Part shown: one piece after another, positions 22,023-22,739 of the stretch
How positions within the stretch are numbered: position 1 is the first letter of the stretch
Layout: every line of letters begins with the position of its first letter
Virus genome (UHGV): UHGV-0200722
From: a virus
DNA: 40,554 nucleotides
Direction: 5' to 3' (one strand)
Notes under the pieces: generated by a model
Database searches by the model: none
Told to the model about the DNA's origin: nothing
The model's input: only the letters and a program-made list of their open reading frames with translations
Position numbers and translations under genes: made by a program

Positions 22023-22041
22023 AAATGAACGCCAAGGAAGG

Positions 22042-22371
22042 CTATTTAATTCTCTTTTCAATGGCTGCAATTATTGCTTTTCCTGATGTTTCAGGAGATT
22101 TTGTAGCCATATAAGACGAAAAAATCATGTCGGTCATTCTTTCATAACTTACTATTTCCCACTTAGCCAATGCATGGGACAGTTTGTAGTTGTCATCAGT
22201 TAGTGCCCTTATGGAATTTTTTAAGTGTTTATTCTCTTCTGTTAATCGCGCAATTTTTGTATCAATTTCATGTGAGCGATCTAATTCCTTAACCTGTTTC
22301 TTGAGGGCAGCTAACCCTGCATATAGTACGCAACAGGATATCCCAAGAGCGAGTACGACTATTTCTAACAC
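22042..22371 (-). CDS. Membrane-anchored coiled-coil protein at the sieA position (candidate superinfection-exclusion protein; function unknown)
   Basis: 109 aa; N-terminal hydrophobic helix IVVLALGISCCVLYAGLAAL followed by a coiled-coil-like segment; opposite strand, immediately after gene 16. Confidence 0.5.
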   Translation of the reverse strand: MLEIVVLALGISCCVLYAGLAALKKQVKELDRSHEIDTKIARLTEENKHLKNSIRALTDDNYKLSHALAKWEIVSYERMTDMIFSSYMATKSPETSGKAIIAAIEKRIK

Positions 22372-22739
22372 ACCAACCTCCTTAGTTTTTCGCAGGATAC
22401 CAGATGATACTTTATTGGTGGAGTGGTGTGTGAAAATGTGTCAACGACAAACCATCCACAACTTGGACGAATGATTTAGCAAAAAGTGCTATTTTTGGTG
22501 TTTGGTGTCATAGAAAAGTGAATAGCTCACTTTTCAACATTGCATGAAACTTGCAGGAAATGTGACATTACCTTATAGGTAACTTCGGCGAAAATGCAGT
22601 AAATGTGAAACGTAATGGTTTAAACATGTCGCTAAAGTGGTTGTAAGTTAGCCTCCGAAGGATTGCTGATAGCTTTGTTATAGTATTAAATGACATTTGA
22701 CATAGTTGGATACTTAGCTGTGGCTATCAAGATGGAGGT

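Follow-up and report, generated by a model that had tools for sequence, protein, structure and literature searches.

In P22-like phages, the interval between genes 16 and 9 is named the 'ant moron' and includes immI and sieA. The passages of the 2008 account that deal with it describe a rapidly changing region, with 'ten types in sixteen genomes' (Villafane et al. 2008, PMC2629481). Two systems of superinfection exclusion from this interval have been tested. The sieA gene is found in 22 of 66 P22-like phages, and the SieA types A, B and C have about 25% identity among themselves and share a pattern of transmembrane (TM) helices and a cytoplasmic motif (Leavitt et al. 2024, PMC10883804). With 85 base pairs (bp) of upstream DNA, sieA excludes P22 from a single copy; it is weakly transcribed in lysogens and up-regulated on induction of P22, and mutations that escape the exclusion map to the C-terminal parts of gp16 and gp20 (PMC10883804). 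In phage BTP1, STnc6030 is a leftward, lysogen-expressed transcript of the gene 16/tailspike interval. It confers immunity to infection but not to induction and was reported as a non-coding antisense RNA; the escape single-nucleotide polymorphisms are non-synonymous and fall within the gene 16 homologue, at its 3' end (Owen et al. 2020, PMC7067206). Here we analyze a gene for a protein of 109 amino acids (aa) in the virus genome UHGV-0200722, a stretch of 40,554 nucleotides (nt) that is referred to below as the window and represents a P22-like (Lederbergvirus-type) phage or prophage. This gene replaces sieA at its slot, and its family is structurally unlike SieA and uncharacterised. We give a probability of about 0.4 to the reading that the protein is a non-homologous replacement of SieA, serving superinfection exclusion, or a different anti-phage role, directed at DNA delivery by P22-like phages.

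A 109-aa Gene in the Place of sieA

The two genes that define the slot in the window are:

20181..22022, plus strand: gene 16, an ejection protein gene whose product has a P22-type C-terminus; it converges on the 109-aa gene across a 19-nt gap
22042..22371, minus strand: coding sequence (CDS) of the 109-aa protein, supported by the open reading frame (ORF) list, the phrog_8100 match (E=1.4e-69), homologues and purifying selection

The original prediction had placed the 109-aa gene at the sieA position, and this turned out to be literally so. The P22 sieA gene lies on the minus strand 22 nt past gene 16, and the 109-aa gene lies on the same strand 19 nt past it. It is thus read leftward in the interval from gene 16 to gene 9 of a P22-like prophage, which is the location of SieA. 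The likeness extends to a 34-nt leader (32 of 34 positions) and to the predicted product, a small inner-membrane protein of a P22-like prophage. The best-conserved motif of SieA is predicted to be cytoplasmic, and so is the C-terminal head of the 109-aa protein. The proteins themselves are different. SieA has three or four TM helices and the motif FxRYPxEAxxFNK, whereas the 109-aa protein has one TM helix followed by a leucine zipper and a helix-loop-helix; by the same measure, we counted one hydrophobic segment in the 109-aa protein and three in SieA-A. BLASTP aligned the protein with P22 SieA over 76 residues without significance (E=0.31), and no SieA-type sequence was present among the homologues. 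By sequence similarity, and by the combination of at least three TM helices with the motif, the 109-aa protein is therefore not a SieA. The original prediction, which had noticed no resemblance to P22 SieA, was right on this point. Exclusion has been demonstrated experimentally for SieA, while for the 109-aa protein it would be attributed by analogy.

HkcB of phage HK620 (107-109 aa) resembles the 109-aa protein in slot, leader and size, in the M-(L/Y)-E/T start, and in having an N-terminal hydrophobic helix, basic residues and a long coiled coil, but the C-terminal domain of the 109-aa protein is different. A BLASTP comparison with HkcB gave no alignment, and the hhalign match (probability 34.5%, E=4e-4) covers 36 coiled-coil columns only. 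At three loci (L009 6001-6680, L010 92-771 and L011 86-765), a gene for a 110-aa family member and a 107-aa HkcB-family gene stand in tandem, in this order, just ahead of the gene 16 homologue; this 107-aa protein is 49% identical to HK620 HkcB.

STnc6030 also lies in the gene 16/tailspike interval and is also leftward. It excludes the cognate phage, with escape in the C-terminus of the gp16 homologue. Unlike the 109-aa locus, BTP1 has no ant moron, the gap is just 155 nt, and it offers at most a hydrophobic ORF of 23 codons. We checked whether BTP1 carries the 109-aa gene and found no such cassette. On the minus strand of BTP1 (LT714109.2, about 14010-14095), within the STnc6030 region, a 23-residue hydrophobic peptide MERDLLNFVFLIFGLVVGKLLFA is encoded with the upstream sequence GAGTGGAGGGTTT-ATG, which includes a good Shine-Dalgarno (SD) sequence. 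By analogy with the SieA-like phenotype and escape sites, STnc6030 might be the mRNA for a mini exclusion peptide.

We also compared the protein with other membrane proteins. FtsB and DivIC likewise have an N-terminal TM helix followed by a leucine zipper. They are N-in with a periplasmic zipper, in contrast to the 109-aa protein, whose charges predict the opposite orientation. The DivIC match (PF04977, E=0.0037, 17.5 bits) is below the gathering score of 28.9, so the protein is not a member of that family. No similarity to YajC was found with the query sequence used (E=1.2).

Coding Status and Architecture of the Protein

The ORF starts with GTG at 22371-22369, stops at 22044-22042 and is preceded by AAGGAGG (22383-22377) at 5-nt spacing. 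To describe its evolution, we used dN/dS, the ratio of non-synonymous to synonymous divergence. Between the window and six diverged homologues, codons 71-109 (the C-terminal 39) show a dN/dS of 0.03-0.12 at a synonymous divergence of up to 0.72, and the whole-gene value is 0.17-0.24 in distant pairs. Evolution is much more rapid in the TM and zipper parts, whose dN/dS reaches about 1-1.6 when the window is compared with the SE1-type variant, a value calculated from few substitutions. This selection pattern rules out a non-functional ORF. Thus, 22042-22371 on the minus strand is a true accessory gene that encodes a protein, and the selected part is the C-terminal head. We consider the gene and the architecture of its product near certain. 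The product has three segments:

22303..22368, minus strand: single N-terminal TM helix, residues 2-23 (19-residue Kyte-Doolittle (KD) mean 2.15-2.43, same pattern in all homologues)
22159..22266, minus strand: leucine-zipper coiled coil, residues 36-71 (heptad test, conservation, helix with a predicted local distance difference test (pLDDT) score of 88-97, sub-threshold GCN4/bZIP matches)
22045..22164, minus strand: C-terminal helix-loop(SPETSG)-helix 'head', residues 70-109 (near-invariant columns, dN/dS 0.03-0.12)

Both the N-terminal TM helix and the coiled coil after it had been predicted, and both were confirmed. In the hydropathy analysis, residues 1-23 alone exceeded the TM threshold, and KK comes next. 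Since the protein begins with M-L-E, without a basic residue before the TM helix, and has KK after it, a pattern that holds in all homologues, the positive-inside rule predicts that the protein inserts N-out/C-in. The heptad periodicity of residues 26-71 is significant, as it was reached by 5 of 5000 shuffles, and the zipper a/d positions are I36 I40 L43 N47 L50 I54 L57 N61 L64 L68 W71. Across the family these positions vary hardly or not at all: L43, L50, I54, L57 and L64 are invariant, and N47 and N61 are near-invariant. Asparagine at 'a' positions is a classic mark of parallel dimeric zippers such as GCN4. Its conservation at two 'a' positions suggests that the protein forms a parallel dimer through the zipper. 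The most conserved stretch of the protein, overlooked in the original prediction, is the C-terminal KWEIxSYExMTDMIFSSYMATKSPETSGxxIIAAIExR; judging by this conservation, the head is likely the functional domain. The AlphaFold2 model has a helix at residues 2-90, a loop and a helix at 97-108, with a mean pLDDT of 84.8.

The protein matches PHROG 8100 over its full length (residues 2-109 on profile positions 2-109 of 109, E=1.4e-69), a family annotated as of unknown function. The family is small: it has 14 clusters in a collection of 5.8 billion sequences, and 8 matches, 5 of them at E<1e-10, among 1.84 billion representatives. A profile search of the same representatives found no relatives outside the family. 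For the head domain and for the protein as a whole, Pfam, NCBIfam, PADLOC and PDB gave no matches above threshold and sub-threshold coiled-coil matches only. These were GCN4, Fos and Jun zippers in the PDB sequence profile search and a single coiled-coil match in PADLOC. Foldseek searches of the AlphaFold2 model against PDB and BFVD gave no matches, a single long helix being a poor query. Clear homology to a structural or late protein would have spoken against the original prediction, and the homology search found no virion or lysis homologue.

The window variant occurs at 99% identity or more in 17 of 5426 complete Escherichia coli genomes, where it is annotated as hypothetical. A variant that is about 82% identical is present in the Salmonella phages SE1, ST160 and SI8, among others; the intact homologues in SE1 (NC_011802, 2640-2970, minus strand) and ST160 (NC_014900, 37540-37866) lack annotation. 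In all contexts examined (Klebsiella L005, L008, L009, L010/L011 and L140), the gene adjoins a gp16 homologue convergently in a P22-like element. At L140, which holds the most distant member (P0017), the gene lies downstream of an Arc/Mnt-family gene on the same strand. One metagenomic protein of 71 aa (P0014, JGI) is a chimera, in which the N-terminal 40 residues match the window's gene 20 protein and the C-terminal 31 match the family end, although these two genes sit on opposite strands. This chimera probably arose as an artefact of assembly or gene calling.

One Leader and Many Cassettes

The start of the gene is preceded by a short conserved element:

22369..22402, minus strand: 34-nt leader of the cassettes in the sieA slot, with an extended -10, SD AAGGAGG at 22383-22377 and a GTG start

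On the minus strand the leader reads TGGTATCCTGCGAAAAACTAAGGAGGTTGGTGTG. Its extended -10 (TGgTATCCT) consists of TG at 22402-22401 and TATCCT at 22399-22394, and AAGGAGG-N5-GTG follows. The same leader precedes HK620 hkcB, the SE1/SI8 homologues, gp14 of Emek and a 75-aa gene of EC.P3; homology of the 109-aa protein to Emek gp14 was not established by comparison. In the diverged loci (Klebsiella, L008, L009), the invariant leader positions are TGnTAnnnT and AAAC.AAGG.GG, which fit an extended -10 element and the SD. Of all the intergenic DNA, the proximal 34 nt (22369-22402) alone constantly accompany the gene. A usable -35 is not present at the leader promoter, and its absence is typical of extended -10 promoters. 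The evidence for a leftward promoter is the phylogenetic footprint TGnTAnnnT, which suggests one. Together with the sufficiency of 85 bp for sieA function and the weak transcription of sieA in lysogens, the shared leader therefore points to a weak constitutive leftward promoter with a transcription start site (TSS) near 22387. By the same analogy, it is quite probable that the 109-aa gene is expressed from the shared leader in the lysogen. Thus, of the independent regulation that had been predicted, a leftward transcription of its own, against the late operon, is supported by inference from the leader footprint, while the single control region is not. We also considered whether two inverted repeats (I1/I2), in which upstream sequence pairs with the SD/start, form a translational switch. 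This was set aside, since the predicted TSS (about 22387) is downstream of the arms formed by the upstream sequence.

To determine what else follows this leader, we scanned IMG/VR for exact copies (31 specified bases) and found at least 120 stretches. Translation of 130 loci with the exact leader from the GTG gave at least 12 mutually unrelated proteins. Among the matches listed, to which all counts of cassettes here refer, the commonest types were:

secreted 129-aa protein: 25 loci
109-aa TM-zipper family: 21 loci
HkcB family: 21 loci
SieA type A: 12 loci
two-TM mini-protein of 62 aa: 11 loci
two-TM mini-protein of 75 aa: 11 loci

Six further types are rarer than these. Of the 12 cassettes, nine exceed the KD threshold for a TM helix, and two more have an N-terminal hydrophobic or signal segment. 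The upstream element of the window's type is paired with 8 cassette types. Since cassette types and upstream types are freely combined, the leader acts as a recombination joint. The kind of cassette is correlated with the C-terminal type of gp16: the 109-aa family, SieA-A and the 129-aa protein alternate beside the same P22-type gp16 C-terminus. The variety of unrelated proteins behind one leader indicates that the site after gene 16 is a cassette slot, which holds one of at least 12 unrelated genes or, in BTP1, none.

The Spacer Consists of Separate Pieces

The DNA between the 109-aa gene and the Panacea gene to its right had been described as one unusually long, AT-rich control region with divergent promoters. 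In this interval between gene 16 and Panacea, the spacer measures 368 nt up to the GTG at 22740 and 374 nt up to the ATG at 22746. The ATG is most likely the start of the Panacea gene, because GGAGG (22734-22738) sits 7 nt upstream of it and PGAP calls a protein of 147 aa in E. coli Z1323CEC0001. The length of 368 nt and a guanine-cytosine (GC) content of 38.0%, against 46.9% for the window, agree with the description. The AT-richness is not peculiar to the spacer: the 109-aa ORF has 37.0% GC and the Panacea operon 41.0%. As the accessory genes on both sides are as AT-rich as the spacer, this is a property of the whole island.

The idea of a single divergent control region did not survive the comparison, which yields three independently assorting pieces: the 34-nt leader, a conserved element of about 220 nt and the Panacea-proximal part of about 125 nt. 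The latter two are:

22403..22620, no strand assigned: conserved non-coding element 'IGR-left', from comparison across phages and prophages
22621..22745, plus strand: Panacea-proximal spacer, which diverges with the Panacea genes (about 87% identity to EC.P3) and has the SD GGAGG at 22734-22738

The segment 22403-22620 shows about 99% identity across Emek, phiv205-1, EC.P3, E212, HH97 and ETEC6333, and its core (22481-22616) is invariant in 7 phages or prophages. In EC.P3 and E212, identity is no more than about 82% in the Panacea genes next to it, and the change near 22620 is abrupt, resembling a mosaic junction. IGR-left is present without Panacea in ETEC6333 (L016) and at one further locus (L032). 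In addition, E. coli CFSAN004176 has an identical 109-aa gene with a spacer of just 118 nt and a different right-hand neighbour. Within IGR-left we found a perfect 9-bp palindrome, GAAAAGTGA-N5-TCACTTTTC, at 22513-22535 and direct repeats TGCAG(G/T)AAATGTGA at 22552 and 22595. No ORF in IGR-left bears an SD. Small spacer ORFs such as the 42-aa ORF at 22568-22696 (minus strand) were rejected, as they lack an SD. A structured RNA was rejected as well: no Rfam family matched the spacer at E<=1, its folding was not significant (z-scores -1.5 and -1.8), and variation is too low for a covariation test. Nor were canonical divergent promoters borne out, since consensus sigma-70 scans of the spacer, which by themselves would have missed the leftward promoter, found nothing above chance. 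The segment 22621-22745 presumably carries the rightward Panacea promoter; the candidates are weak only, for example TTGCTG-17-TTAAAT at 22663-22691.

The Island and Its Neighbors

The slot is flanked by the following genes:

18769-20184: gene 20
22746..23189, plus strand: Panacea/SocA-domain (DUF4065) antitoxin-like gene (PF13274, E=8e-25; the NCBIfam SocA_antitoxin match is below the cut-off)
23194..23613, plus strand: Panacea partner gene, putative toxin of 139 aa, phrog_8366 (weak PADLOC NsnC match, E=7e-6)
23626-23877, minus strand: mnt
24130-24197, minus strand: sar antisense RNA (Rfam, 95.6 bits)

The arc, ant and tailspike genes are in the same neighborhood. For the Panacea partner, the ATG at 23194 (139 aa) is most likely the start rather than the TTG at 23119; its PHROG match covers residues 26-164 of the 164-aa TTG ORF. 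PGAP left this gene without annotation in E. coli Z1323CEC0001. In a 6322-nt stretch of that genome (L017, 1-6322), the spacer from 22424 on, the Panacea module and an immI region immediately follow lambda-like tail genes (gpJ, Lom, tail fibre). A P22-type gene 16 is not annotated within 3 kb to the left of that spacer, and the prophage may be a hybrid or rearranged.

The segment 22023-25311, with the slot gene, the Panacea pair, mnt, arc, sar and ant, is one instance of the ant moron as it appears in the passages of the 2008 account that define it (PMC2629481). Those passages list types of gene content and do not include the 34-nt leader or the 109-aa family. The accessory island that had been predicted is therefore real, whereas the idea of something novel inserted between the ejection genes and immI is not borne out, since this is the hypervariable ant moron already described there. 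The 109-aa gene has the features of an ant-moron accessory gene: patchy presence, dispensability for morphogenesis, 37% GC against 47%, and a conserved predicted extended -10/SD leader. Inside its CDS, on the late-operon (plus) strand, a hairpin followed by a T-run lies at 22079-22098; it could dampen late transcription that reads through toward the tailspike gene, a function that was at one time suggested for the ant moron of P22.

Discussion

What could the 109-aa protein do in the lysogen? We favor superinfection exclusion because of the slot position, the shared leader, the two tested precedents (SieA and STnc6030) and the bias of the cassettes toward the envelope. That escape mutations in the C-terminus of gp16 are common to both tested precedents favors it further. 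The weak extended -10 promoter would give a leftward transcript that is independent of the late operon and made in the lysogen, as for SieA. [quoted passage not shown] There the protein would hinder incoming P22-like phages in delivering their DNA. It might bind the gp16/gp20 conduit at the end that is embedded in the membrane or faces the cytoplasm, or bind a host factor on which the conduit depends.

Several observations weigh against exclusion. No similarity to known superinfection exclusion or defence proteins was found in Pfam, PHROGs, the SieA BLASTP comparison, PADLOC or NCBIfam. The predicted topology leaves about 3 periplasmic residues; therefore, a periplasmic contact with gp20 is excluded, and gp16 could be contacted only within the membrane or in the cytoplasm. 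The family occurs beside HK620-type and BTP1-like gp16 too, so that no specificity for a conduit type is evident, and physical linkage alone could explain the association of cassettes with gp16 types. The tandem arrangement at L009-L011 means that the TM-zipper and HkcB families can coexist and are not simple alternatives. A 140-aa slot cassette has no membrane or signal segment, thus the slot is not limited to envelope proteins. As for expression, a consensus scan of the spacer gave no sigma-70 promoters, and the best position weight matrix scores were below the shuffle median.

A broader reading takes the slot as a dedicated hypervariable 'exclusion cassette' site, in which one fixed leader serves at least 12 unrelated small envelope proteins, each of which would block the gp16/gp20 DNA-delivery conduit in a different way. 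The set would include SieA, HkcB, the TM-zipper protein and perhaps the 23-residue STnc6030 peptide of BTP1, and the 109-aa protein would be a new structural class of injection blocker, a dimeric stalk-and-head at the cytoplasmic face. We regard this broader reading as doubtful.

Other functions have to be weighed against exclusion. The neighboring Panacea toxin-antitoxin, a defence-type module, together with the frequent presence of defence genes in prophage accessory slots and the fast evolution of the TM and zipper parts, which fits an arms race (dN/dS up to 1-1.6, few substitutions), would suit a membrane-tethered coiled coil that acts as an abortive-infection protein or sensor/effector against unrelated phages rather than as a block to P22-like injection. 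We think this unlikely: PADLOC gives just the sub-threshold coiled-coil match, the small protein with its single TM helix has no enzymatic or pore-forming domain and no obvious effector, and the adjacency to Panacea is not conserved (CFSAN004176). It is also rather improbable that the gene serves lysogenic conversion, with the cytoplasmic head modulating what the host does at its inner membrane, for instance in division, secretion or envelope stress. ZipA and YajC have a bitopic N-out/C-in layout, which the predicted layout of the 109-aa protein matches, and Pfam gave sub-threshold matches to DivIC, ZapB and bZIP. However, these matches are below the gathering scores and reflect coiled-coil composition, and the search with YajC was negative. 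YajC is needed for P22 injection (PMC10883804), so an activity directed at YajC or Sec would tie in with exclusion. The confinement of the family to the gene 16-adjacent slot of P22-like prophages points to a phage-related role.

We consider a role in the lytic cycle, in the phage's own DNA delivery, in lysis timing or in late read-through to the tailspike gene, very unlikely. The up-regulation of P22 sieA on induction (PMC10883804), the influence of the ant moron on late transcription into gene 9, as stated in the relevant passage of the 2008 account (PMC2629481), and the plus-strand hairpin with its T-run inside the CDS would fit such a role, but the gene is oriented against the late operon and has no virion or lysis homology in Pfam or PHROG. 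It is also dispensable, as many P22-like phages lack it and have unrelated genes or none in the slot. Finally, the leftward transcript could itself be the active agent, antisense to the 3' end of gene 16 as proposed for STnc6030, with the ORF being secondary. The gap to gene 16 is merely 19 nt, the minus strand has no predicted intrinsic terminator from 22100 to 21300, and an antisense exclusion RNA has been reported in the same slot (PMC7067206). Nevertheless, purifying selection at the protein level is strong on codons 71-109, and the strong SD and conserved start indicate translation. The gene adjoins very different gp16 3' ends, which is incompatible with an antisense mechanism, and the mechanism is not secure for STnc6030 either, as that transcript contains the unrecognised 23-codon ORF with a good SD. 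This explanation is therefore highly improbable.

If the 109-aa protein has no phage-related phenotype, it is one more uncharacterised moron. The value of the finding is mainly slot-wide: one fixed leader is combined with many unrelated small envelope proteins. This leader is a simple handle for finding the cassettes in genomes, several of which, such as those of SE1 and ST160, are unannotated. If the 109-aa protein and its slot-mates are alternative injection blockers, they would be natural, structurally unrelated probes of the gp7/gp20/gp16 trans-envelope DNA conduit, and such a set of blockers would explain why gp16 and gp20 rank among the most variable virion proteins.

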